64,000 nucleotides of DNA, taken from the NCBI RefSeq assembly GCF_000027125.1, contig NC_017626.1. One strand, 5' to 3'. The translations under genes and the position numbers were made by a program. This document shows positions 2,242 to 53,437 of this stretch, in pieces; position 1 is the stretch's first letter; each line of letters begins with the position of its first letter. Source of the stretch: Escherichia coli 042 (GTDB lineage: Bacteria; Pseudomonadota; Gammaproteobacteria; Enterobacterales; Enterobacteriaceae). The notes beneath the pieces were generated by a model. The model worked only from the letters and a program-made list of their open reading frames with translations. It was not told where the DNA came from and made no database searches.

Positions 2242-2327
2242 GAGAATAGTCCTCCTGAATGTGAAAGTAAGAAACAGCTGAGAAAGAGAAACTGAAGTGA
2301 TATGAAGGTGATTGTGACGGTGACGGG

Positions 2328-2804: not shown

Positions 2805-2819
2805 TGTGCTTCTCTCCAT

Positions 2820-4413: not shown

Positions 4414-4512
4414 AATTTGCTCCTTATCGGTGGTTAAGATTTACTGGTGTAATAAATGAAAAAGCCACGTCTCCCGGAGAAGACGCGGCCTGATGGGTGA
4501 AATGAATGACGT

Positions 4513-4746
4513 TTATTGTCTGAGAAGACCGTCACTGGCGAGCCGCGTATTAAGCACCTTTCCGGCATCGGGTTCAGAATTCCGGCAGCGCCAGCGTCGC
4601 TGACCTTCCGCGTTGCGGATAACCCGACGGAAATGCATTCCCGGGTCATCCTGGATAAACACATTGCGGTAAGCTGTTATGACAGCAACCGCCTGCCCGT
4701 ATGAGAAAGATCCTTCAGCCAGGACATACTCTGTGTAACCCGGCAT
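4513..4746 (-). CDS. DUF905-family small protein (YkfF-like)
   Basis: 77 aa; ...[29 protein letters not shown]... resembles recalled YkfF motif HFRLVVRD...WRAWNFEPDAG. Confidence 0.55.
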
Positions 4747-4762
4747 ATCTGTTTTCTCCTGA

Positions 4763-4800
4763 TAAATAAAAAGCCTCTGCCACGCGTTGTGACAGAGGCT
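4763..4800 (-). terminator. Putative Rho-independent terminator after the secreted-protein gene
   Basis: Inverted repeat agcctctg...cagaggct (8 bp stem, ~13 nt loop) flanked on the plus strand by an A-run (U-run on minus-strand RNA), ~25 nt past the stop at 4825; coordinates approximate. Confidence 0.4.
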
Positions 4801-4824
4801 GAAGCATGAAACTGACTTCAGGGA

Positions 4825-5280
4825 TCAGTTAACGTTTTTTCCGGAAACGGTAATTAGCAGTGGATGGTAGTCCTGGGGATCGAAAACCGATAACGGCAGA
4901 CTGACACGATGGCCGTTACTTTCTTCAGTTGCTTTAATGATTTCGGTTGTGGCGACATTTTCCACGCACTCCGTTTCCAGAAATGCGTCTGTGGTTCGCG
5001 TGGCATTACTGTCACCAAAAGCTTCCGTTTCCATTTTTCTGGTCACCAGCGTCTGACCATATTTGTCTTTGAGTTGCAGAGTGATGGTGAGGGGGCCAAA
5101 CCCTTCATCGTTTCCGCCATTATCCAGCCGGAACTGGTAAGCACAAATATTTCCCGGGAGCCATATCGTATCTGTATTGCGTATACTGATGTAACGTTGA
5201 TCCTGTGCCCGGAGTGGGGCAGACCACGTTAACCCCAGAATGAAGGCGGTAATCATGCAGGTTTTGAACAGGTGAATCAT
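4825..5280 (-). CDS. Predicted secreted protein with N-terminal signal peptide (YkfB/IrmA-like family suspected)
   Basis: Hydrophobic N-terminus MITAFILGLTWSAPLRAQ then hydrophilic body; family assignment from memory only. Confidence 0.4.
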   Translation of the reverse strand: MIHLFKTCMITAFILGLTWSAPLRAQDQRYISIRNTDTIWLPGNICAYQFRLDNGGNDEGFGPLTITLQLKDKYGQTLVTRKMETEAFGDSNATRTTDAFLETECVENVATTEIIKATEESNGHRVSLPLSVFDPQDYHPLLITVSGKNVN

Positions 5281-5355
5281 GGTATTTACCTCTCTGAATC
5301 ATGACGATGACACTGACAAGTCAGGTGATAAAACGTAAAAGGTGCAGAATACTCG

Positions 5356-7878
5356 TTATGCCGGTAACTCCGGGGGTAATGCTTCTTCCAGCCGGTTAAC
5401 CATATTGCCGAGATGGGATGCATCATATTCCATGACGGGGCGTTGCCTGATGATACTGACCACCAGTGGTTTGATTAACATATTGGTCGCGGCCCGTTGT
5501 TGTATACCGGCGGCGAAAATGATCTCCAGAGCATTCTGATCGATAACACGGGCCAGATTCGCGTTCAGATTTTCTGTTTCATGTCCGGTCAGCAGGAAAC
5601 TGCCGGCAAGCCATGTCACCTGTTCCTGAATCATTGCCAGAATTTTGACGCGATCTTCTTCAACCAGCGCTCCGGCAATTTTTCCTGATACAGCGGAGGC
5701 AATCATTCCCCCCAGAACACCGCCAACCACACGCCCTGTCAGTGCACCAAATGGTCCCAGTGGACTGAACAGTATCCCGCCCGCCACTGACCCGACAGCT
5801 CCACCTGCCACACCGGAAGATGCCACGGCAAGATTCCTGATGAACTGCGTACCGGAGATCCGTCCCCGCAACATTTTGATCATGTCAGGGCCGGTTGTGA
5901 CAGCTACCAGTGCCAGAGATGTCACCAGCGTACCCTTCATCACTTTGTTCAGGGCACTGATATTTCCTGTACCGGTCCCCTTCTGAAGAGCCAGTCGGAC
6001 AGTCGGACTGGCCGTCGAAAAATCAATGTGCTTCAGCATACCCTGAACAACACTGAGCCGGTGAAGTTGCTGGGTTGTGACGTAGACAGCCAGTGTGCGG
6101 GTGAAGGTTTTTCCTGCCTGGACAGCAGCTGTCTGCAGGGCAGCATCGCGATCGCCGGTGCTGAGCCAGAAGACCGATGCCGTCAGGGCAAAACTGATCC
6201 CTCCGGCCGCCAGACTGACAACCGAACCCTCGGCAATATCATAAGTGACCGATTCGATGGTCCCGAACCGGGTGATATTACGGGCCTGGGTATAAGTCAG
6301 ATGTCCCCGACGAATCAGCCGGGACGCTTCTGCGGGATCGGTTACACCAGGTACTTTACCTTCGCGGATCTTATTCCTCATGGTTTCAACAGCGCCGGCA
6401 TACTGATCACGGGGGACTTCCAGTTGCATGGGGCCATGATTTCCCATGTAACGATACTGTCCGTTTTGTCCGTCGAATGCCGCACCGACGCTACGGGCTG
6501 CAGTTGAACAATATTTCGTCTGGATCTCTGTTCCGCTGACCAGTCTGTCTGCTCCATTTCTGGCATTATTATCACCGAGGATCCGTGCGTTTTTCAGACG
6601 GACTCTGTCGACAATATGGTTTCCCCGTTCAGCGGCAAACCCATGTCCCTGCCCTCCGGAAGCAAACATTTTCTCATTTGTACTCCAGGTTTCCGGCAGT
6701 TTCATGAGAATCAGACCATTCGCCGTTGCATCGGAAATAAAACTGTTGTAGGGGCGTTCATAAATTTCCTGACACAGTGTTTCTGTTTCGCGACAAAGAG
6801 AGGAGCAGTACCATTCCGGATCCGGCTTATGATTTTCCGGGGCATGATGTACTTCTGTCAGCCCGCAGGAGGCACAGATACGAAGCTCATCCACGTGATG
6901 GAATGATACAAAACGGCGACCTTCTGAAAAGGGATACCAGTCACCGCCGTCCAGGCAACGATCGAGAAAATCGTCATTCGCTTCCGGTGATAAATTCAGG
7001 CGGTTCCGGAAGAGGGTTTTCAGTTCATCAGGGGTAAATGACAGGCTCTCTCTCAGCTTTTCGTTGAAACCCGCCATGTTTCTTTCATACCAGGCATTGT
7101 CCAGTAGCCAGTTTCCGTCTGCCAGTTCAAATTCCCTCAGTTCTCCCCGGGAAATCCGTTGTGAAATGAGTGTCAGCCAGATGCGCTCCGTCAGCGTTTC
7201 AGGAAGGCTGTAATCGTTTTGCAAACTGCTCAGCCATGATTTACTGTTGAGCACCGGTTGTTCTTCCAGTGTCTGGCTGATGGCACTGGTCAGTCTTTTC
7301 AGCGCCTGGATCTGGCTGGCCGCCCATAGCAGCGTCACTAATGCAGCCAGCCAGTACAACAACCCGCCCCACCACATCAGTGAGGGTGAAATATCGAACT
7401 GCAATGCGATCAATGGTGCGTATGCAGAACACGCCATAAGGAAAAAGGCAGTATAAAAACAGCAGTAATACCCGTTAATTTCCTTGCTGATATCTTCAGG
7501 TGTGAGCCCGTTCTGCTGAATGGTTCTTATCTGCACGGGAAGAGCCAGCAGACCAGCGGCGAGAGCGGTGGTCAGAATAAATTTTACAGAGTCAAAAGTA
7601 TGAGCCTCCAGTGCGATATGTTTACCATCAAGTCCCCACATGAAGCTGATGATCATTCCGGCAATCGTCAGAAATACGCCTGCCAGCCAGCGAATATGGA
7701 ATAACCGGGTTATGCGTTCAGTGATATAGCCAGCCAGTAAAGCCGGACCGAACAGACACAGCAATATGAACCCTGCCAGCGCAGACGCTGTGCTGGTTAA
7801 TGCTCTGAACAAAAGGCGAAGAATGGCAAATCCTGCGATCAGCAGAATCAGCGCGCCGACTATCTGTAACATAGTCAC
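5356..7878 (-). CDS. Large inner-membrane protein, YeeR/YfjW-like
   Basis: 840 aa; multiple hydrophobic helices at N-terminus and Gly-rich hydrophobic C-terminal region; sits where yeeR lies relative to flu in CP4-44. Confidence 0.55.
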   Translation of the reverse strand: MTMLQIVGALILLIAGFAILRLLFRALTSTASALAGFILLCLFGPALLAGYITERITRLFHIRWLAGVFLTIAGMIISFMWGLDGKHIALEAHTFDSVKFILTTALAAGLLALPVQIRTIQQNGLTPEDISKEINGYYCCFYTAFFLMACSAYAPLIALQFDISPSLMWWGGLLYWLAALVTLLWAASQIQALKRLTSAISQTLEEQPVLNSKSWLSSLQNDYSLPETLTERIWLTLISQRISRGELREFELADGNWLLDNAWYERNMAGFNEKLRESLSFTPDELKTLFRNRLNLSPEANDDFLDRCLDGGDWYPFSEGRRFVSFHHVDELRICASCGLTEVHHAPENHKPDPEWYCSSLCRETETLCQEIYERPYNSFISDATANGLILMKLPETWSTNEKMFASGGQGHGFAAERGNHIVDRVRLKNARILGDNNARNGADRLVSGTEIQTKYCSTAARSVGAAFDGQNGQYRYMGNHGPMQLEVPRDQYAGAVETMRNKIREGKVPGVTDPAEASRLIRRGHLTYTQARNITRFGTIESVTYDIAEGSVVSLAAGGISFALTASVFWLSTGDRDAALQTAAVQAGKTFTRTLAVYVTTQQLHRLSVVQGMLKHIDFSTASPTVRLALQKGTGTGNISALNKVMKGTLVTSLALVAVTTGPDMIKMLRGRISGTQFIRNLAVASSGVAGGAVGSVAGGILFSPLGPFGALTGRVVGGVLGGMIASAVSGKIAGALVEEDRVKILAMIQEQVTWLAGSFLLTGHETENLNANLARVIDQNALEIIFAAGIQQRAATNMLIKPLVVSIIRQRPVMEYDASHLGNMVNRLEEALPPELPA

Positions 7879-7992
7879 TCCGTGATGAATATCATGTTAT
7901 TGTGAATGCCAGTGAATGTGGCACTGAAATGTTTTCCCCCGTCCGGGTCCCGGTCATGATGACCGGAACCACAGAGAGGCAATGCAGAATTA

Positions 7993-10900
7993 TCAGAAGG
8001 TCACATTCAGCGTGGCCTGACTGTTATAACCTTCAGCGCTGCTGCCGCTGACGCTGTGGGCATAACCGGCCTGAACGCCCAGGGTGATATTTTCCCGGAC
8101 ACGGGCTTCCAGTCCGGCCTGCAGATCCAGTGAAGTGCCATTCTGTGAGGGAGAGAACGTCATCCCGCTGCCTGCGGTGGAGGTCCCCACACGCATATCA
8201 CCCCGGGAGCTGAAGGTGCGGATAACGGAAGGCTGTACCCACCAGTTCACCGGCAGTTCACGCACACTGTGTTTTGCACTGTCACGCAGGGGGGCACGGG
8301 ATGAGGTGCCTTCACCAAAGGTCATATCGTTGTGGCTGCCCAGACGGAAACCGGCACGCACATGTTGTGCACTGCCATGCCCGAACTTCACATAACCGGC
8401 GTTGTCCTTACCGTCATCCAGCGAAAGCCCCTGCCAGGTGTACTGCAGCCGTGGCTCCAGCATCAGGTTGTCAGTAATACTGAAGGGCAGACCGGTTTCC
8501 AGTGAGCCCAGCCAGCCCCAGCCCCGTGCGCGGAAGTCGTTATTGCCCGATGACGCTTTCATACTGTGGCGGGTTCCCTGTGCCACAATGTCAGCCCACA
8601 GGCCGGAGGAGGTGTGTGTCAGGTTCATATATCCGCCCAGGCTGCCGGCATCATCCCGGACCGTGCCGGCGCGGGAGCCGTCATCATCCTTAACATCAAC
8701 GGAAGAATGGCCTGCAGCACCATACACTCCTGTCGTCAGTGACATACCGGCGACCTCTGTTCTGAGCAGGTCACCCTCCAGACGGACGAAGCCATAGCTG
8801 CCGCTGCTTTCCGGCGTGGCCCCACGGGCAATACCGCCGTTGTTATCGTGACCGAGATGGCCGCCCTGAATGCTGAGACGGACGCTGTTATTTTCACCGT
8901 TTACACCGGTCTGATGGCTGCGTGAGCCTGCCAGAATCCGGTCATAGTCCATTGCCTGTGTCAGCATGGAGGCGTACAGGGGGACTTCAGCACGATAACG
9001 TTCTTCACTGCGCAGATACCAGCTCTCATCACTGTCCCGGTTGAGGGTGTAGTTAAAGGCCCCGGCCTGCAGCATATTCCCCTGGACAAAAGCCCCTTCC
9101 TCCGTGGTGGCACCGTTAATGGCCTCAACCACCTGAATACCCTTACCGGTGGTCGCCAGCCCCGTACCACTGTTGCCGGCGTTCACCAGATTCAGGATGG
9201 TTTTTCCGGTTGCCCTGCCACCGTCAATGACCAGTCTGTCAGCATTGTTCTGCGCCATATCCGGGCGTACACGCAGGCTGATGGTGCCATTCTGCCCGTT
9301 CAGGTTTTTCACCTGCAGGGTTGCCGGTACGAACTTCCCTGTGCGGGTGGAGGTGAAATGAATCTGTCCGGCATGGCTGAGGTCATCCACCACCGACTGC
9401 ACCGTGGCGTTATCAGGGATATTCCAGGTGGCACCGGATGTCAGGGTGACATTCGTGGGGTCAATGGCACCGTTCAGCACTGTGCTGCCGGTCAGCTTCA
9501 GGGCCGTGCCGCGCTGAGCGATGACATCCGTGGTGACGGTACTGTCGTTCAGCGTCAGCGTGCCTTCATTCAGGTTGACGGTTTTCTGGGTGAGTGTGGT
9601 GTTGCTGACAGTGAGTGTGCCACTTCCTGATTTTTCCACCCTGCCGTTACCGGTAAGAGCGCCTCCCTGCAGGAGTGCATCACCTTCACGGATGGTCAGG
9701 GTATCGTTATTCACCGTTTTCCCGGAAAGGGTAAGCGTGGCACCGTTATTCAGCGTGGTGGTGCCCGCCAGCGAGCCCCCTCTGGCAGTGAACAGTCCGC
9801 CATTTACCGTGGTATCCGTGGCCGTATCACCGGCGTTCAGCGTGAATGAACTGCCTTTTTCCAGCATCAGGGCATCCGCCTGACCGCCCCCGATACGGAA
9901 TGCCGTTCCGTCGCTCCGGGTACCACTGACAGCGGCCCCGGAATCGGCCAGCAGTACACCGCCATTCCCCATGGATACGGTGGTGGCGGCACCACCGTTG
10001 CGGACATCCAGCGTTCCGCCATCATCCACACGGGTATTAGTGGCTGTGTGTCCGCTCAGCACATCCAGACGTCCGCCATTTTCCAGTACGACATTATCAG
10101 CCTTACCCGCCAGAACGGAGAATGCTCCCAGGCGGTTTGTGCCGGTGACGGTTGCAGCTGTGCTGGTAACCAGTGCACCTCCCGTGTTCTGGGTGACATC
10201 AGACGCTTTACCGCCGGCATTCACCTGCAGCTTTCCTTTCTGGTTGATGGTGGTATGCGCGGTAGTTCCTCCTTCCTTAATCACCTGCCAGCCCCCCTCG
10301 TTAATTACCGTGTTCAGCGCAAGTCCGTATTTGTGCACATACTGGTTTCCTCCCTCCAGCCGGGTGTTATGTGCCTCGCCGTGTACCGTCTGGTCACCGC
10401 CGGCGTAAATGAGGGTGTCCCGTGCCATCCCCGAAGACCAGATAACCTGCCGGCCATTTTTGTTGATGGTGGTGGATTCAGCCGTCCCTCCGACCATCTG
10501 ACCGCTGGACACATTTTCAGACTCCGGACCACCTTCTGCACCGGTGTTGACGATGGTTCCGGTTGCCTGCCCGCCATGTTTAATGGTCTGGTAGCCAGAC
10601 TGGTTAATCACCGTTCCGGATGCACTGCCGCCTGCATGTATCCATTGTTCACCACCGTTAAGGACAGTACCGTAAGCCTGCCCGCGCAGATTCTGTCCTC
10701 CACCGGCACTGATAACCGTATCCGTGGCACTGCCACCTGCCATGACATCCTGCAGACCGTTTGCGGTGACCGTGGTGTTTCTGGCAGTGCCACCCCGGGC
10801 TATCTGCTGACCGCCGGTGTTGTCATCAGAGTCCGGCCCCAGCTCAAGCCCGGTACTGACAGTCACGCCATCAGCTGTTCCGGATACAAACTGGTTGTCA

Positions 10901-11112
10901 TGGTTTACCAGTGTTCCGCCATTCACTGTTTCACCCGGGTGCACAACGATGTCAGCAGCCAGCACCGGGAGTGACGTGACTGCGGCAAGAGACAGTGCAA
11001 CCGCCACACCGCCACGTTTACCCCGTGCGCGGGCCAGTTCGGAGGCAACCACGAAAGCGCCCGTAATGTGATTCCATACCAGCCTGTAGCAGGTATTCAG
11101 ATGTCGTTTCAT
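7993..11112 (-). CDS. flu: Antigen 43 self-associating autotransporter adhesin
   Basis: N-terminus MKRHLNTCYRLVWNHITGAFVVASELARARGKRGG (extended signal peptide), repetitive beta-helix passenger, C-terminal beta-barrel ending ...TLNVTF; start taken at second Met (1039 aa). Confidence 0.9.
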   Translation of the reverse strand: MKRHLNTCYRLVWNHITGAFVVASELARARGKRGGVAVALSLAAVTSLPVLAADIVVHPGETVNGGTLVNHDNQFVSGTADGVTVSTGLELGPDSDDNTGGQQIARGGTARNTTVTANGLQDVMAGGSATDTVISAGGGQNLRGQAYGTVLNGGEQWIHAGGSASGTVINQSGYQTIKHGGQATGTIVNTGAEGGPESENVSSGQMVGGTAESTTINKNGRQVIWSSGMARDTLIYAGGDQTVHGEAHNTRLEGGNQYVHKYGLALNTVINEGGWQVIKEGGTTAHTTINQKGKLQVNAGGKASDVTQNTGGALVTSTAATVTGTNRLGAFSVLAGKADNVVLENGGRLDVLSGHTATNTRVDDGGTLDVRNGGAATTVSMGNGGVLLADSGAAVSGTRSDGTAFRIGGGQADALMLEKGSSFTLNAGDTATDTTVNGGLFTARGGSLAGTTTLNNGATLTLSGKTVNNDTLTIREGDALLQGGALTGNGRVEKSGSGTLTVSNTTLTQKTVNLNEGTLTLNDSTVTTDVIAQRGTALKLTGSTVLNGAIDPTNVTLTSGATWNIPDNATVQSVVDDLSHAGQIHFTSTRTGKFVPATLQVKNLNGQNGTISLRVRPDMAQNNADRLVIDGGRATGKTILNLVNAGNSGTGLATTGKGIQVVEAINGATTEEGAFVQGNMLQAGAFNYTLNRDSDESWYLRSEERYRAEVPLYASMLTQAMDYDRILAGSRSHQTGVNGENNSVRLSIQGGHLGHDNNGGIARGATPESSGSYGFVRLEGDLLRTEVAGMSLTTGVYGAAGHSSVDVKDDDGSRAGTVRDDAGSLGGYMNLTHTSSGLWADIVAQGTRHSMKASSGNNDFRARGWGWLGSLETGLPFSITDNLMLEPRLQYTWQGLSLDDGKDNAGYVKFGHGSAQHVRAGFRLGSHNDMTFGEGTSSRAPLRDSAKHSVRELPVNWWVQPSVIRTFSSRGDMRVGTSTAGSGMTFSPSQNGTSLDLQAGLEARVRENITLGVQAGYAHSVSGSSAEGYNSQATLNVTF

Positions 11113-27179: not shown

Positions 27180-27216
27180 GACGGACAGGGCATCCTGTCC
27201 GTCATTTTTATTTTTT
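27180..27216 (+). terminator. Rho-independent terminator downstream of hcp
   Basis: Perfect 10-bp stem gacggacagg/cctgtccgtc with 4-nt loop followed by atttttatttttt. Confidence 0.65.
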
Positions 27217-27339
27217 CTTCAGCATCTGTTGGCGGGTGCTGAAGAAAGAATTCTCAATCCTGAACACAGACCTGATGCGCCTGGGTTACGGCGAAGGGCG
27301 GTAGCGTGCCTGACGGTCTCCTGACAGTGAGTGAATAAC

Positions 27340-29997
27340 ATGGAAAATTCGGCAGCCCTGTTACGTCGTCTTAATCATTACTGTGCCCGTGCACTGGAAG
27401 GCGCAGCCTCCCTTTGCCAGACCCGGGCCCATGCGGAAATCACCCCGGAGCACTGGTTACTGAAACTGCTGGAGCAGGGGGAAGGAGACCTTACCGTGCT
27501 GGGCAGGCGTTATGACTGGGATATGGACGCGATATGGCAGTCGCTGCTCGGCTGGCTGGATAACCAGCCCCGTAGCGTACGCAGTCGCCCGCAGCTTGCG
27601 CAGTCCCTGAATGCTCTGCTGAAACAGGCCTGGATGGTGGCCTCATTACAGGGAGAAGAACATATCCGCAGCGTGCATCTGCTGGGTGCCCTGACGGAAA
27701 ATCCGCACCTGGTTCGCTGTGACGGGCTGTGGCCTCTGCTGACACTGAGTCAGAGCCAGTTGCAGCGTCTGTCCCCGCTGCTGGATGCGCAGTCTGATGA
27801 GTGTCCGGAGACGTTACAGGATGCAGAGCCTGTGCTGCCTCAGGGAGACAGTGTGACCTTTATCGGGCGCCCTGTCGGTGCGGATACGGCAGGTATACCG
27901 TCAGGTGACCTGCCGCCGGTGTTACAGGGTGCGCTGGATAAATTCACCCGGGACATCACGGCCAGCGCGAGAGAGGGGAAAATTGACCCGGTATCGGGAC
28001 GCGATACGGAAATCCGTCAGATGGTGGATATTCTCTCCCGCCGTCGCAAGAATAACCCGATTCTGGTGGGGGACCCCGGTGTGGGGAAAACGGCTCTGGT
28101 GGAAGGGCTCGCCCTGCGTATTGTGGAAGGTAACGTACCAGAATCTCTCAGACCCGTCACCCTGCGCACCCTTGACCTCGGCCTGCTGCAGGCCGGTGCC
28201 GGCGTGAAAGGTGAATTTGAACAGCGTCTGAAAAACGTGATTGATGCCGTGCAGCTGTCACCGGCTCCTGTACTGCTGTTTATAGATGAAGCCCATACCC
28301 TTATCGGTGCCGGTAATCAGGCCGGTGGCGCGGATGCGGCCAACCTGCTGAAGCCTGCGCTGGCGCGAGGCGAACTGCGCACCATTGCTGCCACCACCTG
28401 GTCTGAGTACAAACAATACCTGGAACGTGACGCGGCTCTGGAGCGGCGTTTTCAGATGGTCAAAGTGGACGAGCCGGATGATGAGACGGCCTGTCTGATG
28501 CTGCGCTCCCTGAAATCCCGTTATGCGGAACATCATAACGTGCATATCACCGATGAGGCAGTACGTGCTGCCGTCACACTCTCGCGCCGTTATCTGACAG
28601 AACGTCAGTTACCGGACAAGGCCGTTGACCTGCTTGATACTGCTGCTGCCCGTGTGCGGATGAGCCTCGACACGGTGCCGGAACAGCTGACCCGAATCCG
28701 TTCACAGCTCGCTTCCCTCGGTATGGAAAAACAGGCACTGCTGGAAGATATTGCCGTTGGTCATCAGAATCACGGCGAACGCCTGTCTGCCATTGAGCAG
28801 GAAGAGAACGTGCTGATGACAGCACGTGATGACCTGGAGCAGCAGTACGCCCGTGAGTGCGAACTCACCGGTGAGTTACTTGAAAGCCGCAGCGATATTT
28901 CCCGCCAGAGTGAGACACATCACCTGCAGCAGGCACTGCACGACATTCAGCAGAATCAGCCCCTGCTCAGTGTGGATGTTGACGTACGCACCGTTGCCGG
29001 TGTGGTCGCGGACTGGACCGGAGTGCCGTTATCCTCACTGATGAAGGATGAACAGACGGAACTGCTGCATCTGGAAAAGGATATCGGCAGACGGGTGGTC
29101 GGACAGGACGTGGCACTGGAATCCATTGCACAGCGTCTGCGTGCGGCGAAAACGGGTCTGACATCCGGTAACGGCCCCCAGGAGGTGTTCCTGCTGGTCG
29201 GCCCCAGTGGTGTGGGAAAAACCGAAACGGCACTGGCGCTGGCAGATGTGATGTACGGCGGCGAAAAATCACTGATTACCATCAATCTGTCGGAATATCA
29301 GGAGCCCCATACGGTTTCCCAGCTTAAGGGTTCACCGCCCGGGTACGTGGGATACGGTCAGGGGGGTATTCTGACGGAAGCTGTACGTAAGCGCCCTTAC
29401 AGCGTGGTGCTGCTGGATGAAGTGGAAAAGGCCCACCGGGATGTGCTGAATCTGTTCTACCAGGTGTTTGACCGGGGCTTTATGCGCGACGGTGAGGGGC
29501 GTGAAATTGACTTCCGTAATACGGTCATTCTGATGACCTCCAATCTGGGCAGTGACCTTCTGATGCAGCAACTGAGCGAAAAGCCGGAGACAACGGAATC
29601 GGAGCTGCATGAGCTTATCCGTCCACTGCTGCGCGACCACTTCCAGCCAGCACTGCTTGCCCGTTTCCAGACCGTGATTTACCGTCCGCTGACACCGTCT
29701 GCTATGCGCACCATTGTGGAGATGAAGCTTGCACAGGTCTGCGAACGCCTGCACTGCCATTATGGGCTGAGCACATCGGTTGATGAACGTGTGTACGATG
29801 CCCTGACATCCGCCTGCCTGCTGCCGGATACGGGCGCCCGGAATGTGGAGAGTCTGCTGAACCAGCAACTGCTGCCGGTACTGAGCCGGCAGTTGCTGAG
29901 CCATATGGCCGCGAAGCAGAAACCGCAGGCGCTGGCTCTGGCATGGAGTGACGAAGACGGTATGGTGATTGAGCTGCGGCAGGAATGCGCGTTATGA
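27340..29997 (+). CDS. clpV: T6SS AAA+ ATPase ClpV (TssH); alternative GTG start at 27331
   Basis: Two AAA modules with Walker A GDPGVGKT and GPSGVGKT; Clp N-domain; 885 aa. Confidence 0.92.
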
Positions 29998-30560
29998 CCG
30001 GCTATGGCAGAAATCAGGACGCTGGCGCAGGTAAAAATCAAAGGGAAGAAGGCTCATTGCGGTTACTGACGCCGGGAGAGATTGCGCTGGCGAGGCTGGT
30101 ATTCAGGTTGACAATCCCTTATGAAAAGGTCTGGATCCACCATGACAGTTTTCTGCCTTTTGGTCTTCAGAATAAGCAAACTGCCATGCCCCCCGATGGT
30201 AAGATTTATTTCCGTGAGCACTATCGGGATGATTATTCACTCAGCGTTCCCTTTTATCAGCATATGTTTATTCATGAAATGGCGCATGTCTGGCAGCGTG
30301 AAAAGGGAATGAATGTCATCGGTCGGGGGATGTTCAGTTGGGCGGTGAATTACCGTTATGTTCTGGACGGGCGTCTGTTAAGCGAATATCCCATGGAGCA
30401 GCAGGCACAAATTATTGCTGATCATTTTACTTTGCAGGCTGAAGGATACGGGACATGGTGTGATATGAGAAGGGACGGTGATATCACACTGGACGGAAAT
30501 ATGTCTGAGTATGTTATTCGCAGCCTGTATACCAGCACGTTGCGGGGGTTCCCATGGTAA
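29994..30560 (+). CDS. HExxH zincin-like protein (DUF4157-like), candidate T6SS-associated effector or accessory protein
   Basis: Motif FIHEMAHVWQ preceded by VWIHHD and GKIYFREHY; start overlaps clpV stop (also possible at 29985). Confidence 0.5.
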   Translation: MTGYGRNQDAGAGKNQREEGSLRLLTPGEIALARLVFRLTIPYEKVWIHHDSFLPFGLQNKQTAMPPDGKIYFREHYRDDYSLSVPFYQHMFIHEMAHVWQREKGMNVIGRGMFSWAVNYRYVLDGRLLSEYPMEQQAQIIADHFTLQAEGYGTWCDMRRDGDITLDGNMSEYVIRSLYTSTLRGFPW

Positions 30561-31096
30561 AAATAAGAGCCTTTCGTTATCGTTCTGCTTTACTGCTCTG
30601 TCTGACGTTACTGACAGGATGCCCCGGACGCGGGGATTATTATCGGTTTGATGAAACAGTAACGGTCAGCACAAGAGGCGACAATGTGTGTTTCAGTGTC
30701 CCGGAGCCAGAGGACTACCAGCCAGTCAGCGTTTCCATCGCTCCACGGGGAACCCGATTCAGGGAGCGGCAAATTACATCTGAACCCTCGCTTCGTATCG
30801 TGAACGGCCAGCTGTGCATTCCGCCTTCATTCTGTCTTTTTCCTGATAAAGGCCAGTTCATTGTCAGGTCTGTTCTGCACTCTGAGCGCGATAAGGACAC
30901 ACCGCGCATCATGGTTGCCGGCATAGAGATTGCCGACGGGTGTATTTTCGATATCCCGCTTAATGACATGGAGGTCGTGAGGCCATACGGTGAGCTGAAA
31001 AGCAGTAATGTTCAGACTGACCAGAGCGAACGTCATGGTCCCTGCAAATACCCTTTCAGAGCTGTTCGTGGAGTGATAAATCATGAATCTCACTGA
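30554..31096 (+). CDS. Predicted lipoprotein (possible cognate immunity protein)
   Basis: Signal peptide with lipobox LLTGC; overlaps preceding gene end and vgrG start. Confidence 0.5.
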   Translation: MVKIRAFRYRSALLLCLTLLTGCPGRGDYYRFDETVTVSTRGDNVCFSVPEPEDYQPVSVSIAPRGTRFRERQITSEPSLRIVNGQLCIPPSFCLFPDKGQFIVRSVLHSERDKDTPRIMVAGIEIADGCIFDIPLNDMEVVRPYGELKSSNVQTDQSERHGPCKYPFRAVRGVINHESH

Positions 31097-33608
31097 CTCC
31101 CTGCAAAATGTTTTATCCGGGGTGGGAACCCTGAACCGCTACAGACTGGATATACCTTCCTGCCCGTCATCGCTGGATGTTGAAGATTTCAGCGGAACTG
31201 AAGGCATAAGTAAGATTTACCGGTATGACATCATTTTTACCAGTACGGACAGGTATCCTGATGCTGCCTGGTTCCTGCGTAAATCCGCAACCCTGATAAT
31301 GGGAACCGGATTACTGGAAAGCCTGACTGAACAGAAAAAAGTGCACGGTGTTATTACTGATTTCAGACGTATTTCTGGCTCTGAGGACCAGGCACAATAC
31401 CGGATCACACTTAAACCTTTCATTTCCCTGCTGGATAAACAGTTCCGTACACACCGTTTTTTCGTTAATAAATCAGTGCCTGAGGTGGTGGAGCAAATCC
31501 TGACGGAACACGGGCTGAAAGGCTGGGAGTATGAGTTCAGCCTCAAAAGGACATATCCGAAGCGCGAACAGATTAACCAGTATCAGGAAAGCGATCTGAG
31601 ATTTATCCAGCGCCTGCTGGCAGAAGTGGGCATTTTTTACTTCTTTACGTTGCACCCGGATGCGCAGACAGAGGTGATCCACTTCGGTGACGTCCAGGCG
31701 GCGTTGATATTTGATAAAACACTGCCCGTTAACAGCCCGTCCGGTATGAGTGACAGTGGCACAGACTCAGTATGGGCATTGAATGTGGAGCACCGGGTGG
31801 TGGAAAGCCGTGTTATCACGAACGACTATAACCACCGCGAGGCCCAGAACATACTGATGTCCGTACCGGCGGACATGACCCGTGGAGAAGGTTACGACAC
31901 CAGTTATGGCGAGGTTTATCATTACCGGCCACGCCATACAGAAAGGGGCGATAAAATTGACCCTGCGCCGGAGACGGCTAACTTCTGGGCCCGGCTCGAT
32001 CACGAGCGTTTTCTGGCTGAGCAAACACGTATCACAGGTAAAAGCACCGATGCCAGTCTGTTACCGGCACAGGTGCTGACTATTACTGACAGTACTCCAC
32101 CAGTGTTGCCTGCACCGTTACAGGAGCCGGTTCTGCTCACGCAGCTTCTGTTCACCGGTAGCCGGAAATCTGCGCTACAGGTGATGCTGAGTGCTGTTCC
32201 TTACAGCGAGATTGTCTGCTGGCGACCACCGTTACTTACTCGTCCGAAAATCACCGGGACCATGACGGCCCGTGTGACCAGTGCAAAAGAAGGGGATATC
32301 TACGCCTGGCAGGATGCTTCAGGCATGTACCGGGTGAAATTTGATGCTGACCGTGATGATAAAAATCCGGGACAGGAAAGTATGCCGGTACGTCTGGCCA
32401 AACCCTACAGTGGTGATGCTTATGGTTTTCATTTTCCGCTGATTCAGGGAACGGAAGTGGCCATTGCTTTTGAGGAAGGTGATCCGGATCGTCCCTATAT
32501 AGCGCATGCCCTGCATGATTCACGTCATGTTGATCACGTTACCGATAAGAACGGTACGCGCAATGTTATCCGTACGCCGGCAAATAACAAGTTGCGGATG
32601 GAGGACAAACGCGGTGAGGAGCATATCAAGCTCAGTACCGAGTATGGCGGTAAGACACAACTTAATCTTGGCCATAACGTTGATGCCTCCCGGGAACTCA
32701 GGGGAGAAGGCGCTGAGCTGAGGACTGATGACTGGATAAGTATCCGGGGAGGAAAAGGAATATTTATCAGTGCAGATATGCAGCCTCAGGCACAAGGAAA
32801 GATGCTGGATATGGATGAAGCTATCCGCCAATTGGAGCAGGCATTATCTCTGGCCCGAAGTATGGCGAAGGCCGCAACTGCTGCAAATGCTACTCAGGGA
32901 GATATAAGTTGTCAGCAACGGTTGAATGCATCACTAACAGATCTCACTGCGCCGGGAATGCTGTTGCATGCTCCTGATGGGATTGGCATGGTTAGTGCGC
33001 GGGCGTTACGAATTGCTTCAGGTAGTGAAAGCGTGGGCATAATGTCGGGAGATAACACTGATATTACTGCCGGGCAGTCATTTACAGTTGTAGCAGAAGG
33101 TGCTGTTAGCCTGTTGAGCAGAAACCAGGGGATGCAACTGTTAGCAGCAAAAGGGCGGGTAAATATTCAGGCTCAAAGTGACGATTTGTCAATGAGTTCC
33201 CAACAGAATCTTGATATTCAAAGTTCTGAGGGCAAAGTGACTGTTTCTGCTAATCAGGAACTGATACTGGCATGTGGTGGAGCTTATATCAAACTAAGCG
33301 GTGGAAATATTGAGCTGGGATGCCCGGGACAGATTCTGTTAAAAAGCACGAATATGCAGAAGATGGGACCAACAAGTCTTGATATTGCGTCTGTTGAAAT
33401 GCCGCGAGGGTTTGGGGGCGGTTTTATTCTTACCGATGAAGCGGGAGTGCCGCAACCTTCGACGCCTTATCGATTAACAACGGCTGAAGGTGATATTCTA
33501 CAGGGGATCACCGATGAAAATGGTAAAACAGCGCCAGTCAACACCTCCATTCCGTCAGTAGTAAAAGTTGAGTTTGGGAAGGTAAAAATTCATGGAGAAA
33601 CAGAATGA
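31083..33608 (+). CDS. vgrG: T6SS spike protein VgrG (TssI) with C-terminal extension
   Basis: 841 aa; gp27/gp5-like core and C-terminal extension; followed directly by lipase effector gene. Confidence 0.9.
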   Translation: MNLTDSLQNVLSGVGTLNRYRLDIPSCPSSLDVEDFSGTEGISKIYRYDIIFTSTDRYPDAAWFLRKSATLIMGTGLLESLTEQKKVHGVITDFRRISGSEDQAQYRITLKPFISLLDKQFRTHRFFVNKSVPEVVEQILTEHGLKGWEYEFSLKRTYPKREQINQYQESDLRFIQRLLAEVGIFYFFTLHPDAQTEVIHFGDVQAALIFDKTLPVNSPSGMSDSGTDSVWALNVEHRVVESRVITNDYNHREAQNILMSVPADMTRGEGYDTSYGEVYHYRPRHTERGDKIDPAPETANFWARLDHERFLAEQTRITGKSTDASLLPAQVLTITDSTPPVLPAPLQEPVLLTQLLFTGSRKSALQVMLSAVPYSEIVCWRPPLLTRPKITGTMTARVTSAKEGDIYAWQDASGMYRVKFDADRDDKNPGQESMPVRLAKPYSGDAYGFHFPLIQGTEVAIAFEEGDPDRPYIAHALHDSRHVDHVTDKNGTRNVIRTPANNKLRMEDKRGEEHIKLSTEYGGKTQLNLGHNVDASRELRGEGAELRTDDWISIRGGKGIFISADMQPQAQGKMLDMDEAIRQLEQALSLARSMAKAATAANATQGDISCQQRLNASLTDLTAPGMLLHAPDGIGMVSARALRIASGSESVGIMSGDNTDITAGQSFTVVAEGAVSLLSRNQGMQLLAAKGRVNIQAQSDDLSMSSQQNLDIQSSEGKVTVSANQELILACGGAYIKLSGGNIELGCPGQILLKSTNMQKMGPTSLDIASVEMPRGFGGGFILTDEAGVPQPSTPYRLTTAEGDILQGITDENGKTAPVNTSIPSVVKVEFGKVKIHGETE

Positions 33609-35287
33609 CAAAATATCAGGGATATGACGTAACAGATGCCACCCATAAAACCAGTATTCATAATGACTGGAAAGTTGTTGTTGCAAAGAAAAAACCGGCG
33701 CGGGGTGTGACTTTAACTATTGGCATATTTTTCGATGGTACCGGAAACAATCGGGAGAATACAGCATCTCGCCTGATGAAATTTAATGAGTGTAGTGCAG
33801 CCAGACAGGGGGTAAATCAAAAAGATGCACAAAGCTGTGAGGACTTTCTTAAAGAAATTAACAAGAACAGTATCTCGAATGGCAGTTATCGTGGATATTA
33901 TTCCAATATTCACTGGCTTAATATACTCTATCATCCAGATCAGGTACTTAAAAAAGACCAGACGTCAGCTCAAATTAAGACTTACATTTCCGGGATAGGG
34001 ACTGCGGCTGGTGAAGCAGATTCAGTCATAGGCATGGGATTAGGCACCAGTATTCTGGATATATTTGAAGGTGTGGTGACGAAAACCGACGAGGCAATGG
34101 AACGAATCACCCAGGCGTTATCAGAATTTATGGGGTTCAATTTAAGTCCTGATTTTTGTATCGCAAAAATCCAGTTTGATGTTTTTGGTTTTAGCCGGGG
34201 AGCAGCGGCGGCAAGGCACTTTGCCAATCGGGTTATGGAACAGGATCCTGCTATAGCCAGAGCTATTGCTAAAGGGCTCAGAGGCGATTTTTATGATGGT
34301 AAACCTTCTGGTGAAGTACGTTTTCTGGGGCTTTTTGATACTGTCGCAGCTATTGGTGGAATCAGTAATTTCTTCGATATTAATGGACGTAGCAACCCGG
34401 GAGTAAAGCTGGAGTTGCGTCCTTCAGTCGCGAAGAAAGTTTTCCAGATTACTGCAATGAATGAATACCGATATAATTTCAGCCTGAACAGTATTAAAGG
34501 TATGTGGCCCGAACTGGCTTTACCGGGGGCGCATTCAGATATTGGAGGTGGTTACAATCCGGTAGGTTCACCTCTGCAGGAAAATGAAAGTCTGTTTCTG
34601 AGTTGCCCGGAATTTGAAATTGTCAGTGACGATACCAGAGAAATGGATACGCGAGTATACCGTAAAGCAGAGCAAGTCAGAAAAATGTTGATGACTCTGC
34701 CAGCCTTAAAACATATTTTGCCTCATGGAAAACTAACCACCAAAATTCGTTCCATAGGTGTGAACAACAGCAATCAACGTCGGGCTGGTGTGATACAAAA
34801 GCAGGTGGGAGCCGCAGTATTTTTTGAGCGTATGGCAGTACCTAATGACTGGGCTAATGTTTGCCTGCGTGTGATGCTGGATGCTGCTCAGGAAGCAGGG
34901 GTATTGTTTGAACCAATTCGACAAACAAATACTGAGTTACAACTTCCATCTGAACTAATATTTCTTGCTGACAAAGCCATTGCTCAGGGAAAAGCGGTAC
35001 GTTTGGGGCAAGAGCCTCAGGCTTTTACTGAGGAAGAGTTGTATATTATCGGAAAATACACCCATTGTTCCGCTAACTGGAATATTGAGTCTGATGGTAA
35101 TTTATGGGTGGATCCTACAACGGGAGAGATTTTTATCCATCGCTTTGGTCCTAAAGGTAATAAGGCGTTCGTTTTTCCGAATAAACCAAATGATCGCTGG
35201 ATTCGTTCTGTATGGTACATGGATGATCAGCAGCGATTGAATGATAACGCAGTAAAAAATACTAAAGTTATGATGTCTGGTGTTTAA
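33605..35287 (+). CDS. tle1: Tle1-family T6SS phospholipase effector (DUF2235 alpha/beta hydrolase)
   Basis: IGIFFDGTGNN motif and GFSRG (GxSxG) nucleophile elbow; ATGA overlap with vgrG. Confidence 0.85.
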   Translation: MTKYQGYDVTDATHKTSIHNDWKVVVAKKKPARGVTLTIGIFFDGTGNNRENTASRLMKFNECSAARQGVNQKDAQSCEDFLKEINKNSISNGSYRGYYSNIHWLNILYHPDQVLKKDQTSAQIKTYISGIGTAAGEADSVIGMGLGTSILDIFEGVVTKTDEAMERITQALSEFMGFNLSPDFCIAKIQFDVFGFSRGAAAARHFANRVMEQDPAIARAIAKGLRGDFYDGKPSGEVRFLGLFDTVAAIGGISNFFDINGRSNPGVKLELRPSVAKKVFQITAMNEYRYNFSLNSIKGMWPELALPGAHSDIGGGYNPVGSPLQENESLFLSCPEFEIVSDDTREMDTRVYRKAEQVRKMLMTLPALKHILPHGKLTTKIRSIGVNNSNQRRAGVIQKQVGAAVFFERMAVPNDWANVCLRVMLDAAQEAGVLFEPIRQTNTELQLPSELIFLADKAIAQGKAVRLGQEPQAFTEEELYIIGKYTHCSANWNIESDGNLWVDPTTGEIFIHRFGPKGNKAFVFPNKPNDRWIRSVWYMDDQQRLNDNAVKNTKVMMSGV

Positions 35288-35906
35288 CGCTACAGGATGA
35301 CAATACATGACCAGAGATAAAATCATTTTTATCGCACCATTATTGGCATTGTTAACTGGGTGTAATTCGGTTAGCTCACGGTATGCTGATTTGGATAAGA
35401 CTGAATGGGGTTATAAAAAATTACCCTATGATGAATGGAAATTTCTCTTTATTTATCCAAAGGCTCTGCCTGCGCTGGCCACCCAGGCGTTGATGGTGGA
35501 CGGGGAAGGTTATAAGACGACTTATCAGTATCTTGATAATACCGAGCCGAGTCAGGTCAGTGTAGGGCGCTGGAATGACCATCTGGGCGCGACTGAGTCG
35601 TATTATAACAAGGGGAAAGCATTACCCCTGATGTTGCGTTTTTGCTGGGATTCAATAATTGATAAAAAGAGTTATGAAACTCTGATTTTTTTTAAAAAAG
35701 GGACCTGGGAGCAGATGGTTACGCCTTACGCAGACAACCGCTGGAACGAAACCTATTATCGTTCAACGATGATTATTGGTCTGGCTCCTGAAGGGAAGGT
35801 AAGAGTCTGGCTGGGAGATCGCGGTAATCCGGTGGTACCTCAGTTGGATGCTAAAATTACTACAGTATCGGGTGATAAAATGAAGATGTGTAAGGGGGTT
35901 ACTAAA
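35238..35906 (+). repeat. Direct repeat copy 1 (~669 bp): last ~50 bp of tle1 plus most of tli1-a
   Basis: Matches 36059..36727 at a constant 821-bp offset; encoded proteins identical over ~200 aa. Confidence 0.8.
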
Positions 35907-35984
35907 AGTGATTTCTCATATGGATATGATGAAGATATTAAGGAGTTTATCAGAGATAAAACTTATCCTTACGGTAACTGGTGA
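35307..35984 (+). CDS. tli1: Tli1-like lipoprotein immunity protein, copy a
   Basis: Lipobox LLTGC; immediately downstream of tle1; 225 aa. Confidence 0.7.
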   Translation: MTRDKIIFIAPLLALLTGCNSVSSRYADLDKTEWGYKKLPYDEWKFLFIYPKALPALATQALMVDGEGYKTTYQYLDNTEPSQVSVGRWNDHLGATESYYNKGKALPLMLRFCWDSIIDKKSYETLIFFKKGTWEQMVTPYADNRWNETYYRSTMIIGLAPEGKVRVWLGDRGNPVVPQLDAKITTVSGDKMKMCKGVTKSDFSYGYDEDIKEFIRDKTYPYGNW

Positions 35985-36058: not shown

Positions 36059-36727
36059 TGAATGATAACGCAGTAAAAAATACTAAAGTTATGATGTCTG
36101 GTGTTTAACGCTACAGGATGACAATACATGACCAGAGATAAAATCATTTTTATCGCACCATTATTGGCATTGTTAACTGGGTGTAATTCGGTTAGCTCAC
36201 GGTATGCTGATTTGGATAAGACTGAATGGGGTTATAAAAAATTACCCTATGATGAATGGAAATTTCTCTTTATTTATCCAAAGGCTCTGCCTGCGCTGGC
36301 CACCCAGGCGTTGATGGTGGACGGGGAAGGTTATAAGACGACTTATCAGTATCTTGATAATACCGAGCCGAGTCAGGTCAGTGTAGGGCGCTGGAATGAC
36401 CATCTGGGCGCGACTGAGTCGTATTATAACAAGGGGAAAGCATTACCCCTGATGTTGCGTTTTTGCTGGGATTCAATAATTGATAAAAAGAGTTATGAAA
36501 CTCTGATTTTTTTTAAAAAAGGGACCTGGGAGCAGATGGTTACGCCTTACGCAGACAACCGCTGGAACGAAACCTATTATCGTTCAACGATGATTATTGG
36601 TCTGGCTCCTGAAGGGAAGGTAAGAGTCTGGCTGGGAGATCGCGGTAATCCGGTGGTACCTCAGTTGGATGCTAAAATTACTACAGTATCGGGTGATAAA
36701 ATGAAGATGTGTAAGGGGGTTACTAAA
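36059..36727 (+). repeat. Direct repeat copy 2 (~669 bp), including a fossil of the tle1 3' end upstream of tli1-b
   Basis: Sequence tgaatgataacgcagtaaaaaatactaaagttatgatgtctggtgtttaa (tle1 stop region) recurs before second tli1. Confidence 0.8.
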
Positions 36728-36805
36728 CATCCAGATGGATATGTTTATTACGGTGATACACCAGATTTTATCAAAGGGAAAATTTATCCCTACGGCAACT
36801 GGTGA
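36128..36805 (+). CDS. tli1: Tli1-like lipoprotein immunity protein, copy b (divergent C-terminal ~25 aa)
   Basis: Identical to copy a through ...KMKMCKGVTK, then diverges (HPDGYVYYGDTPDFIKGKIYPYGNW). Confidence 0.7.
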   Translation: MTRDKIIFIAPLLALLTGCNSVSSRYADLDKTEWGYKKLPYDEWKFLFIYPKALPALATQALMVDGEGYKTTYQYLDNTEPSQVSVGRWNDHLGATESYYNKGKALPLMLRFCWDSIIDKKSYETLIFFKKGTWEQMVTPYADNRWNETYYRSTMIIGLAPEGKVRVWLGDRGNPVVPQLDAKITTVSGDKMKMCKGVTKHPDGYVYYGDTPDFIKGKIYPYGNW

Positions 36806-36836: not shown

Positions 36837-37103
36837 ATGTCTAAAGGTTTTGTATTGCTTGGTGATAATACCACACATGGTGGTAAAGTTATTTCTGCAT
36901 CTTCAACCATGATTGTCGATGGTAAAAAAGTAGCTCTTGTTGGAGATATGGTTAGTTGCCCTGTTTCCGGACATGGTACCAATCCTATTGTGGAGGGCTC
37001 TCCTGAATGGATATCTGATGGAAGAGCTGTTGTGATTGATGGATGTAAATGTCTGTGTGGGTGTAAGGTTATATCCAGTGCACCGGAATGTGCAATAGGA
37101 TAA
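36837..37103 (+). CDS. PAAR-domain spike-tip protein
   Basis: 88 aa, Gly/Cys-rich (GDMVSCPVSGHG, CKCLCGCKV) typical of PAAR cone proteins. Confidence 0.75.
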   Translation: MSKGFVLLGDNTTHGGKVISASSTMIVDGKKVALVGDMVSCPVSGHGTNPIVEGSPEWISDGRAVVIDGCKCLCGCKVISSAPECAIG

Positions 37104-52015: not shown

Positions 52016-52069
52016 TGTTCTTTTCGTCACTGTTAATCATGATTTAATACAGCAACACCGAATCTGCCG

Positions 52070-53437
52070 ATGACTTCTGAAGTGAAACTGAAAACCGGTG
52101 GTGACCCCCGGTCATTACCGGATTATGCTGCCCTGCGCGATGAAATCAGCAAACTGACTCACCCGGCACGCCCGGATGTGGACTGGCGTTACGTGGAAAC
52201 ACTCTGCCTGCGTCTGTATGAACACAATGGCGTGGAATTACAGACGGCATCCTGGTACACCATCGCCCGGATGCATACAACAGGGTTAAGTGGTCTGAAT
52301 GAAGGGCTGGCTCTGATTGTGGCGCTGACCCGGCATCACTGGTCAGTGATGTGGCCGCTGAATACCCACGCCCGGCTGGAAATTATTACCGGTCTGTTCA
52401 ACCATCTGCAAAAAACGCTTCGGGCCATGCCTCCGGACGACCGTGACAACCTGCCCCTGCTGTATCAGACCGAAACATTCCTGAAGGCACTGAGTGACAC
52501 ACTGGCCCGGCACGAACTTAAACAGAGCAGTAAAGTGGCTTTACCGGAAGCCATGGTGAAGGGATATATCACCCGCCTGGAGAACCAGCCTGTGCAGGGT
52601 GAAGTATCGTCTCCGGTAACCCTTCCGGCGCAGGCACTCCGGTCTGATGCTCCGGACGTACAGGAACATCAGACCCTGCCGCACTCCCGTCTGGTGTATG
52701 TTGTTTCTGAAACAAAAGCAGAGAGCGGAAAAGAAAACACACATTCCCTTCAGAAATCCCCGCCCACGTTTCTGAAACCGTTTGTAACTGGTGTCTGTGC
52801 GGCATTGCTGGCGGTCAGCGTGGCCATTCCGGGATGGCAGTTTCTGACACAGCCATCACCGGCGGAGCAGCAACTCAGGGCGTTGCTGACACCACCACCG
52901 GATGTGCTTTCAGCAGGCCAGATGACACAGCTCAGCAGAACACCTTCACTGCTAAATCATGCGTCAGAGTGGATAACCCTTTCCGGTCAGCAGATAACAC
53001 GACTGGCAGAACTACCCCCGGCATACAACCTGCAACGCAGTGCGCAGCTGCTGCAGCAACTGAGGGTACTTTTTCCCGACAATCCCCGTGTTCAGGAAAT
53101 GGTGGATAACTGGCAGAAGAGTGTAAGGAGTCGTGCGCTCCCGGAAGAGGCGATGGCGGGCTGGAACGAAGGCATGACCCGCTTACAGCAGCTGGCTGAG
53201 CGCCTGAACCGTCTGGATGAGCAGCGGGGAAAATACATGACGGTCAGTGAACTGAAAACGGAGGTGTTTGGCATCATGCAGGCTTTTAACCGGCATATCC
53301 CGGCAGAAGAGCAGTTACGTCGCTATGATGAAGTTCGTAACCAGAATAGCAGTGAACAGCAGCAAAAAAAGGTGGAAAATGGTCTTGTCGAGCTGGTGAG
53401 TCGTTACTGGGTTTTGACGCAAGGGGACATGAAGTGA
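52070..53437 (+). CDS. ImpA_N-domain T6SS accessory protein (TagA/VasL-like)
   Basis: N-terminal DPRSLPDYAALRDEISKL...DWRYVETLCLRLYEHNGVELQTASWY parallels TssA ImpA_N; central TM helix. Confidence 0.6.
   Translation: MTSEVKLKTGGDPRSLPDYAALRDEISKLTHPARPDVDWRYVETLCLRLYEHNGVELQTASWYTIARMHTTGLSGLNEGLALIVALTRHHWSVMWPLNTHARLEIITGLFNHLQKTLRAMPPDDRDNLPLLYQTETFLKALSDTLARHELKQSSKVALPEAMVKGYITRLENQPVQGEVSSPVTLPAQALRSDAPDVQEHQTLPHSRLVYVVSETKAESGKENTHSLQKSPPTFLKPFVTGVCAALLAVSVAIPGWQFLTQPSPAEQQLRALLTPPPDVLSAGQMTQLSRTPSLLNHASEWITLSGQQITRLAELPPAYNLQRSAQLLQQLRVLFPDNPRVQEMVDNWQKSVRSRALPEEAMAGWNEGMTRLQQLAERLNRLDEQRGKYMTVSELKTEVFGIMQAFNRHIPAEEQLRRYDEVRNQNSSEQQQKKVENGLVELVSRYWVLTQGDMK

Follow-up and report, generated by a model that had tools for sequence, protein, structure and literature searches.

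Between the clpV and vgrG genes of a type VI secretion system (T6SS) in Escherichia coli 042, two small overlapping open reading frames (ORFs) very likely constitute, to judge from their sequences, an effector–immunity pair of the Tpe/Tpi (VgrG2b-C-ter-like) family. The genes lie in a 64,000-nucleotide stretch of contig NC_017626.1 (NCBI RefSeq assembly GCF_000027125.1), hereafter the window, to which all plain coordinates refer; across this region it matches the chromosome of enteroaggregative E. coli (EAEC) 55989 with 100% identity. ORF A (29994–30560, plus strand) would encode a 22-kDa stand-alone gluzincin metallopeptidase of the Tpe/VgrG2b-C-ter family, predicted to be an antibacterial cargo effector of the T6SS. 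ORF B (30554–31096, plus strand) encodes a 180-residue lipoprotein of the DUF7480/NF045617 family, the predicted periplasm-facing cognate immunity protein. We computed the homology of both proteins, the conservation of the active site, the predicted fold and lipoprotein features, the gene order and overlaps, and the polymorphism of the slot in which the genes sit. A sequence-only reading of this DNA had proposed a periplasm-acting metallopeptidase with a lipoprotein immunity partner. That proposal now draws support, by sequence and by analogy, from homology to VgrG2b, from a conserved active site, from the NF045617 and DUF7480 family models and from a comparable pair in Salmonella.

The reference point for the family is the work of Wood et al. 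2019 (PMC6899460) on Pseudomonas aeruginosa, in which VgrG2b-C-ter was described as a periplasm-acting toxin and PA0261 as its immunity protein, and in which the two were grouped with Tpe1/Tpi1 of Acinetobacter baylyi as the Tpe-Tpi family. Mutation of the HExxH residues of VgrG2b abolished its periplasmic toxicity. The same study remarked that in many Enterobacteriaceae the peptidase is a free cargo effector, whose gene is followed by one for a predicted lipoprotein immunity partner (PMC6899460).

The predicted metallopeptidase and its lipoprotein partner

ORF A is a clear homologue, in sequence and in modelled fold, of the gluzincin toxin domain at the C-terminus of VgrG2b. A phmmer search of the PDB returned a single significant match, entry 6H56, which is the C-terminal effector domain of VgrG2b (E 7.9e-20), and a profile of 31 ORF A homologues reached E 6.8e-29 against 6h56_A. 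Homologues found numbered 246; the 31 in the alignment come from Escherichia, Enterobacter, Salmonella, Yersinia, Serratia, Erwinia, Pantoea, Cronobacter and other genera, across which sequence conservation is 59–79%. Four residues, His94, Glu95, His98 and Glu135, are invariant throughout this alignment and fall on His935, Glu936, His939 and Glu983 of VgrG2b. The first three belong to the HEMAH motif (residues 94–98; 30273–30287, plus strand), the predicted zinc-binding and catalytic motif, and the fourth (30396–30398, plus strand) lies within an invariant MEQQAQII segment, where it is predicted to be the gluzincin glutamate and third zinc ligand. The spacing between histidine and glutamate agrees as well, given that 41 residues in ORF A plus 7 alignment gaps equal the 48 of VgrG2b. 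The four residues are thereby predicted to be the zinc ligands and the catalytic glutamate of a thermolysin-like gluzincin.

The predicted structure points the same way. An AlphaFold2 (AF2) model built on the homologue alignment has a mean predicted local distance difference test score (pLDDT) of 79.3 and a predicted template modelling score (pTM) of 0.78, with low confidence only at residues 1–19 (pLDDT <50) and 112–118. When this model was compared with the PDB by Foldseek, 6h56_A/B was the sole significant match (E 1e-7, probability 1.00, TM 0.59–0.62), the next standing at E>2. The structural alignment, which sets a predicted model against a solved structure, has 37% identity.

The sequence-only reading had described an HExxH protein of 189 residues. 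The motif, FIHEMAHVWQ, is indeed present at residues 92–101, but the length is 188 residues, both in the ORF and in the RefSeq record WP_000148361.1. It was right that there is no signal peptide to be read in the sequence, residues 1–21 being polar, with no hydrophobic segment. Exactly this protein is found on at least 1000 public contigs, and some public E. coli entries of it are fragments of 82–139 residues. The family is widely named “type IV secretion protein Rhs” in public databases (homologues P0002–P0118), and the RefSeq copy of strain 55989 is called a “hypothetical protein”. The family has no Rhs repeats, and it is located in type VI, not type IV, clusters.

A resemblance to DUF4157, which had also been suggested, was borne out only weakly. 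The current Pfam entry PF13699 (eCIS_core), which we take to be the former DUF4157, is not matched by ORF A at E≤10, and among the 31 relatives it is approached only below threshold: 15 of the 31 fall at 0.001<E≤0.1 (best 2.1e-3) and none at E≤0.001. No precomputed Pfam domain is given for any of the 120 ORF A homologues listed. Membership of ORF A in PF13699 is unconfirmed; the wider family is often annotated as DUF4157 (Wood et al. 2019, PMC6899460).

ORF B begins with MVKIRAFRYRSALLLCLTLLTGC and carries the lipobox LLTGC, a motif read by eye from the sequence. The sequence-only reading had called the next gene a lipobox lipoprotein, and the family alignment agrees: Leu20, Gly22, Cys23 and Pro24 are invariant in 21 family members, as are Cys46 and Cys88. 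Within the L-T-G-C of the lipobox (30611–30622, plus strand), Cys23 is the predicted acylated residue and the first of the mature protein. Over residues 12–126, ORF B matches the NCBIfam model NF045617, “putative T6SS immunity periplasmic lipoprotein”, at 84.7 bits against a curated cut-off of 43, and RefSeq already names the protein accordingly; the match to Pfam DUF7480 (PF24295) stands at 2.9e-11. Its AF2 model, of moderate confidence (pLDDT 70.8), shows a beta-rich domain. Among the top 50 matches of a fold search of AFDB50 with this model, the strong ones are exclusively DUF7480 proteins of Enterobacterales, and the weak ones include CopC-like beta-sandwiches. The two invariant cysteines of the family fit the conserved cysteines and the DsbA dependence reported for PA0261 (PMC6899460).

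The last ~50 residues of ORF B (~127–180; 30932–31096) form a C-terminal tail with a conserved Cys164, which is found in the E. coli and Enterobacter lipoproteins and is missing from relatives of 142–162 residues. Its pLDDT is below 50 at residues 148–161 and 172–180, and its end overlaps the start of vgrG.

The closest system with functional data is SARI_02727/SARI_02726 on the SPI-20 island of Salmonella enterica subsp. arizonae (S. arizonae), a pair already predicted by Wood et al. 2019. SARI_02727 is toxic when directed to the periplasm, and growth is partly rescued by SARI_02726; furthermore, a mutant without the two genes was outcompeted by the wild type but not by the effector mutant (PMC12992299, 2026). 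SARI_02726 fractionates with the outer membrane (PMC6899460). The two systems are alike in most respects. The Salmonella effector, too, is a stand-alone protein of ~189 residues with an HExxH motif and a downstream glutamate, the start of its DUF7480/NF045617 lipoprotein overlaps the effector stop, and the locus runs tssK, tssL, an OmpA-family gene, hcp, clpV, the 189-residue effector, the 154-residue DUF7480 protein and vgrG. Identity to SARI_02727/SARI_02726-type proteins is 63% for ORF A and 43% for ORF B. They differ in the lipoprotein, which has 154 residues in S. arizonae and 180 in E. coli, where the additional, poorly modelled tail places it in an Enterobacter-type subgroup, and in the cargo downstream of the spike, which in E. 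coli is Tle1/Tli1 and not the S. arizonae genes.

The slot between clpV and vgrG

Comparison of E. coli genomes shows that the clpV–vgrG junction is a swap site for toxin–immunity cassettes. Among complete genomes, this clpV type is present in 89–120 and the pair in 34–38. In 36 genomes, collinear Sci-1 clusters with the same hcp, clpV, vgrG, tle1 and tli1 hold a different two-gene module in the slot (L007:8215–9080 in strain FHI_NMBU_11; also L006). This module encodes a 213-residue protein with glycine-rich hydrophobic stretches, annotated in one genome as “Ssp6 family T6SS pore-forming effector”, and a 75-residue membrane protein of two helices. It thus resembles our pair in its position and in its order, a toxin followed by a small envelope protein, but it is unrelated in sequence and has neither an HExxH motif nor a lipoprotein. 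Strain STEC313 carries both module types, at two separate loci.

The pair is tightly embedded in the slot. The stop codon of clpV and the start of ORF A overlap in a common ATGA, ORF A and ORF B share 7 nt (CCATGGTAA), and the 3′ end of ORF B overlaps the start of vgrG by 14 nt; these overlaps uphold the earlier statement that both genes are translationally coupled into the clpV–vgrG stretch. The composition changes along the way, GC content being 58% in clpV, 48–50% in the pair and 43% in tle1. In seven of eight related loci, the effector stop and the lipoprotein start share the sequence CCATGGTRA (here 30552–30560; also L002, L004, L008, L011, L012 and L013). Therefore, the last two residues of the effector, Pro-Trp, and the first two of the lipoprotein, Met-Val, are read from the same bases, which accounts for the nearly universal “MV” with which the lipoproteins begin and is one reason for the invariant P-W at the end of the effectors. 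Such tight co-expression of toxin and antidote is expected for a pair of this kind.

Eight targeted contig look-ups showed that the order clpV–effector–lipoprotein–vgrG is kept across genera, in loci of Escherichia, Enterobacter, Salmonella, Yersinia, Serratia and Erwinia. All the related loci that were read have vgrG 3′ of the pair; the toxin after vgrG varies and may be Tle1-like, Lipase_3 or Tae4. Of the two partners, the effector is consistently the better conserved, as in Yersinia wautersii, with 79% for the effector and 59% for the lipoprotein.

Two of these loci carry traces of rearrangement. On the Yersinia contig CABHWP010000039.1 (L010:5001–7611), a full pair is followed by a 193-residue 3′ fragment of clpV, a truncated effector, a second DUF7480 lipoprotein, vgrG and Tae4. 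The truncated effector has 143 residues and is 67% identical to ORF A, the second lipoprotein is 51% identical to the first, and the tandem arrangement looks like a displaced older cassette. On a Salmonella enterica contig (L002:5508–9606), a 166-residue C-terminal fragment of clpV precedes the pair, vgrG and Lipase_3, in a block that lies downstream of tssM and PAAR. This arrangement suggests that the block moves by recombination at the 3′ end of clpV. Remnants of the clpV 3′ end, truncated copies, the drop in GC content and the faster divergence of the lipoprotein are typical of the turnover of toxin–immunity cassettes.

The surrounding genes make up a complete Sci-1-type T6SS cluster with all core tss genes. 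Their names follow the RefSeq annotation of the identical 55989 sequence, and the order is tssB, tssC, tssK, tssL, an OmpA-family gene, hcp, tssH/clpV, ORF A, ORF B, vgrG, tle1, two tli1 genes, PAAR, tssM, tssA, tssF, tssG, tssJ and tssE. On the plus strand, the gene for the sheath-recycling ATPase, tssH/clpV, occupies 27340–29997. The vgrG spike gene (31083–33608, plus strand), whose product is a candidate carrier of the effector, is followed on the same strand by tle1 (33605–35287), which encodes a phospholipase effector, the second and previously characterised cargo of this spike, and by the two tli1 immunity genes (35307–35984 and 36128–36805); the PAAR gene lies at 36837–37103. Window coordinates of tle1, tli1 and PAAR were obtained by adding 9899 to those of the annotated locus L001. 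Here two tandem tli1 genes follow tle1; E. coli strain FHI_NMBU_11 has one.

Towards its ends the window holds other material. The left end (~1–11100) has genes of island type, namely a CbtA/CbeA toxin–antitoxin pair, an antirestriction gene, radC and an Ag43 autotransporter, and the T6SS is therefore placed in a mobile-island context. On the 3′ side of the Sci-1 cluster, ~52069–53436 and 62413–64000 contain fragments of T6SS genes (a VasL-domain gene and an ImpA N-terminal pseudogene) and insertion sequence elements, and a second T6SS cluster (tssB, tssC) starts at the right-hand end of the window.

Alternative readings and points against the assignment

A position between clpV and vgrG that is fixed in six genera, overlapping reading frames and an effector conserved at 59–79% across genera would also suit a conserved component of the machine, accessory or structural, for example a peptidase that remodels the envelope of the producing cell for assembly and is held in check by the lipoprotein. 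The sequence-only reading had itself allowed for an uncharacterised structural accessory. We regard this as very improbable, and the slot polymorphism described above contradicts it: clusters that are collinear, down to the same tle1 and tli1, hold the Ssp6-family module instead, and only 34–38 of 89–120 genomes with this clpV type have the pair, which is therefore not a fixed structural part. Furthermore, without a signal peptide ORF A could not reach the periplasm of its own cell unaided, and the Salmonella relative behaves as a toxin–immunity pair (PMC12992299). Neither protein matches any NCBIfam model for core or accessory T6SS components (Tss/Tag), ORF B matching the immunity model only. 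An effector aimed mainly, or additionally, at the host of this enteroaggregative pathogen is improbable too, even though VgrG2b has been described as a trans-kingdom effector (PMC12992299) and the window belongs to a region of an EAEC strain that resembles a pathogenicity island. A dedicated periplasm-facing lipoprotein, translationally coupled to ORF A, argues for a target in the bacterial periplasm. Besides, genera from the environment or associated with plants, such as Erwinia, Pantoea and Serratia, have the same pair, and evidence for eukaryotic targeting is lacking for any stand-alone family member (PMC12992299).

It might also be thought that the pair is a decayed or silent remnant, comprising an inactive toxin and an orphan immunity gene that protects only against the toxins of neighbours. 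Precedents could be seen in the displaced, truncated effector with a retained lipoprotein in Yersinia (L010) and in the public E. coli entries that are fragments of 82–139 residues. Against this, ORF A is full length with all four catalytic residues intact, it is translationally coupled inside an apparently complete T6SS operon, and dozens of complete genomes carry its sequence in identical or near-identical form, as do at least 1000 contigs. There is scarcely any chance that the gene is such a relic.

The assignment to the Tpe/Tpi family has to be set against several points that weigh against it. On the side of the toxin, ORF A has no match at all in Pfam, even at E≤10, and none in NCBIfam, PADLOC or PHROGs, so that one solved relative and the literature have to carry the assignment. 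On the side of the immunity protein, the link to Pseudomonas is missing. Comparison by hhalign of the 21-member ORF B profile with PA0261 (165 residues; sequence read from a P. aeruginosa contig, L016:5566–6063, between the VgrG2b C-terminus and tle3) gave a probability of 0.5% and E 0.13, with no detectable similarity, and neither PA0261 nor any other Pseudomonas protein was identifiable among the top 50 AFDB50 fold matches of ORF B. The case for an immunity role of ORF B is thus made by the Salmonella relative and by gene position, and the name “Tpi family” groups these proteins by role and position, not by demonstrable common descent. In Wood et al. 2019, PA0261-type and lipoprotein partners were called homologues, with low identity noted (PMC6899460). 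Furthermore, neither an adaptor gene nor a recognisable loading domain for ORF A is evident in the annotated cluster, and the literature that could be searched yielded no study of the E. coli genes. For the family as a whole, no peptidase substrate has been reported for any Tpe member; for VgrG2b-C-ter, no peptidoglycan hydrolase activity was found and only candidate partners are named, e.g. MltC, PBP5 and PBP6a (PMC6899460). Finally, Tpe1 of A. baylyi was toxic for E. coli at low salt only (PMC6899460), and potency may therefore depend on conditions.

Two further known systems can be set beside the E. coli pair. P. aeruginosa VgrG2b/PA0261 shares with it the homologous gluzincin domain, with the same H-E-H-E residues and the same predicted fold, and a small envelope-targeted protein encoded immediately downstream of the peptidase. 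There, however, the peptidase is fused to the VgrG spike via a TTR linker, whereas ORF A is a separate cargo encoded upstream of vgrG, and PA0261 has an ordinary signal peptide and lacks detectable sequence or profile similarity to the DUF7480 lipoprotein. Tpe1/Tpi1 of A. baylyi (ACIAD0053/ACIAD0054; Ringel et al. 2017, as cited in PMC6899460) is similar in that a stand-alone cargo metallopeptidase with periplasmic action is followed by its immunity gene. It is unlike the E. coli pair in that a transmembrane helix, and not lipid, holds Tpi1 in the inner membrane; this comparison is one of published descriptions.

Expression, proposed mode of action and significance

The pair is probably carried on a transcript that depends on RfaH anti-termination. 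An exact match to the consensus of the RfaH ops site, GGCGGTAGCGTG, lies between hcp and clpV (27297–27308, plus strand), with a terminator-like hairpin after hcp (27180–27203) just 5′ of it; anti-termination of the transcript that contains the pair is likely to take place there. A lone 12-mer match of this kind is not significant by itself, as 86 of 100 shuffles gave at least two matches at ≤1 mismatch. Its position is that of ops1 in the EAEC sci1 cluster, where a reporter immediately 3′ of clpV gave a lower signal when ops1 or rfaH was mutated (bioRxiv 10.1101/2025.02.08.637259). It follows by inference that the pair would be expressed within the RfaH-dependent transcript. A scan for promoters and terminators around the pair found nothing inside it above shuffled expectation, and expression from the upstream operon is the simpler reading.

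Periplasmic toxicity through the catalytic residues and T6SS-dependent delivery have been established for VgrG2b, Tpe1 and SARI_02727 only, and, within the DUF7480 family, neutralisation, as a partial rescue, for SARI_02726 only (PMC6899460, PMC12992299). By analogy with these relatives, we infer the toxicity, compartment of action, secretion, neutralisation and carrier (VgrG or Hcp) of the E. coli pair, and the following course of events can be proposed. ORF A would be made in the cytoplasm as a 22-kDa thermolysin-like gluzincin without a signal peptide, co-transcribed and translationally coupled with clpV, ORF B and vgrG. It would then be loaded non-covalently on the T6SS projectile, be fired into a neighbouring Gram-negative cell and act in the periplasm of that cell. 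There, its zinc-dependent activity might disturb processes of the cell wall or of division, leading, as in the analogous case of VgrG2b-C-ter, to blebbing and lysis. In the producing cell, ORF B would be exported, lipidated at Cys23 and anchored so as to face the periplasm, probably with a disulfide between Cys46 and Cys88, and it would bind and block ORF A arriving from sister cells.

As to the carrier, 22 kDa is a size at which effectors can be carried inside Hcp. The constant adjacency to vgrG fits loading of ORF A on the spike equally well, and it also fits a dedicated pairing of effector and spike without a known adaptor. In the enterobacterial stand-alone clade, two parts of the effector have a poor alignment with VgrG2b or none: residues ~150–188 (ORF A numbering), which are well folded in the model and end in an invariant LRGFPW, and the N-terminal tail. 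It is exactly the C-terminal part (~150–188) that the displaced Yersinia copy is without. It is conceivable, if on balance unlikely, that this C-terminal region or the variable, charged N-terminal tail is the docking determinant onto VgrG or into Hcp, replacing the covalent VgrG fusion of Pseudomonas.

As a probable E. coli member of an effector–immunity family that has already been described, the pair will not surprise a T6SS specialist, and it leaves the understanding of T6SS biology unchanged. The assignment of ORF A and ORF B is nevertheless useful for annotation, although the lipoprotein half is already so named in RefSeq. It offers a likely function for a gene that RefSeq calls a “hypothetical protein” and that bears the misleading label “type IV secretion protein Rhs” in many other genomes. 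In addition, it suggests that the well-studied EAEC-type Sci-1 system of 55989-like strains fires a second antibacterial toxin besides Tle1. Having a member of the family in a genetically tractable E. coli could help to find the substrate of the family and the loading route of its free-standing form.

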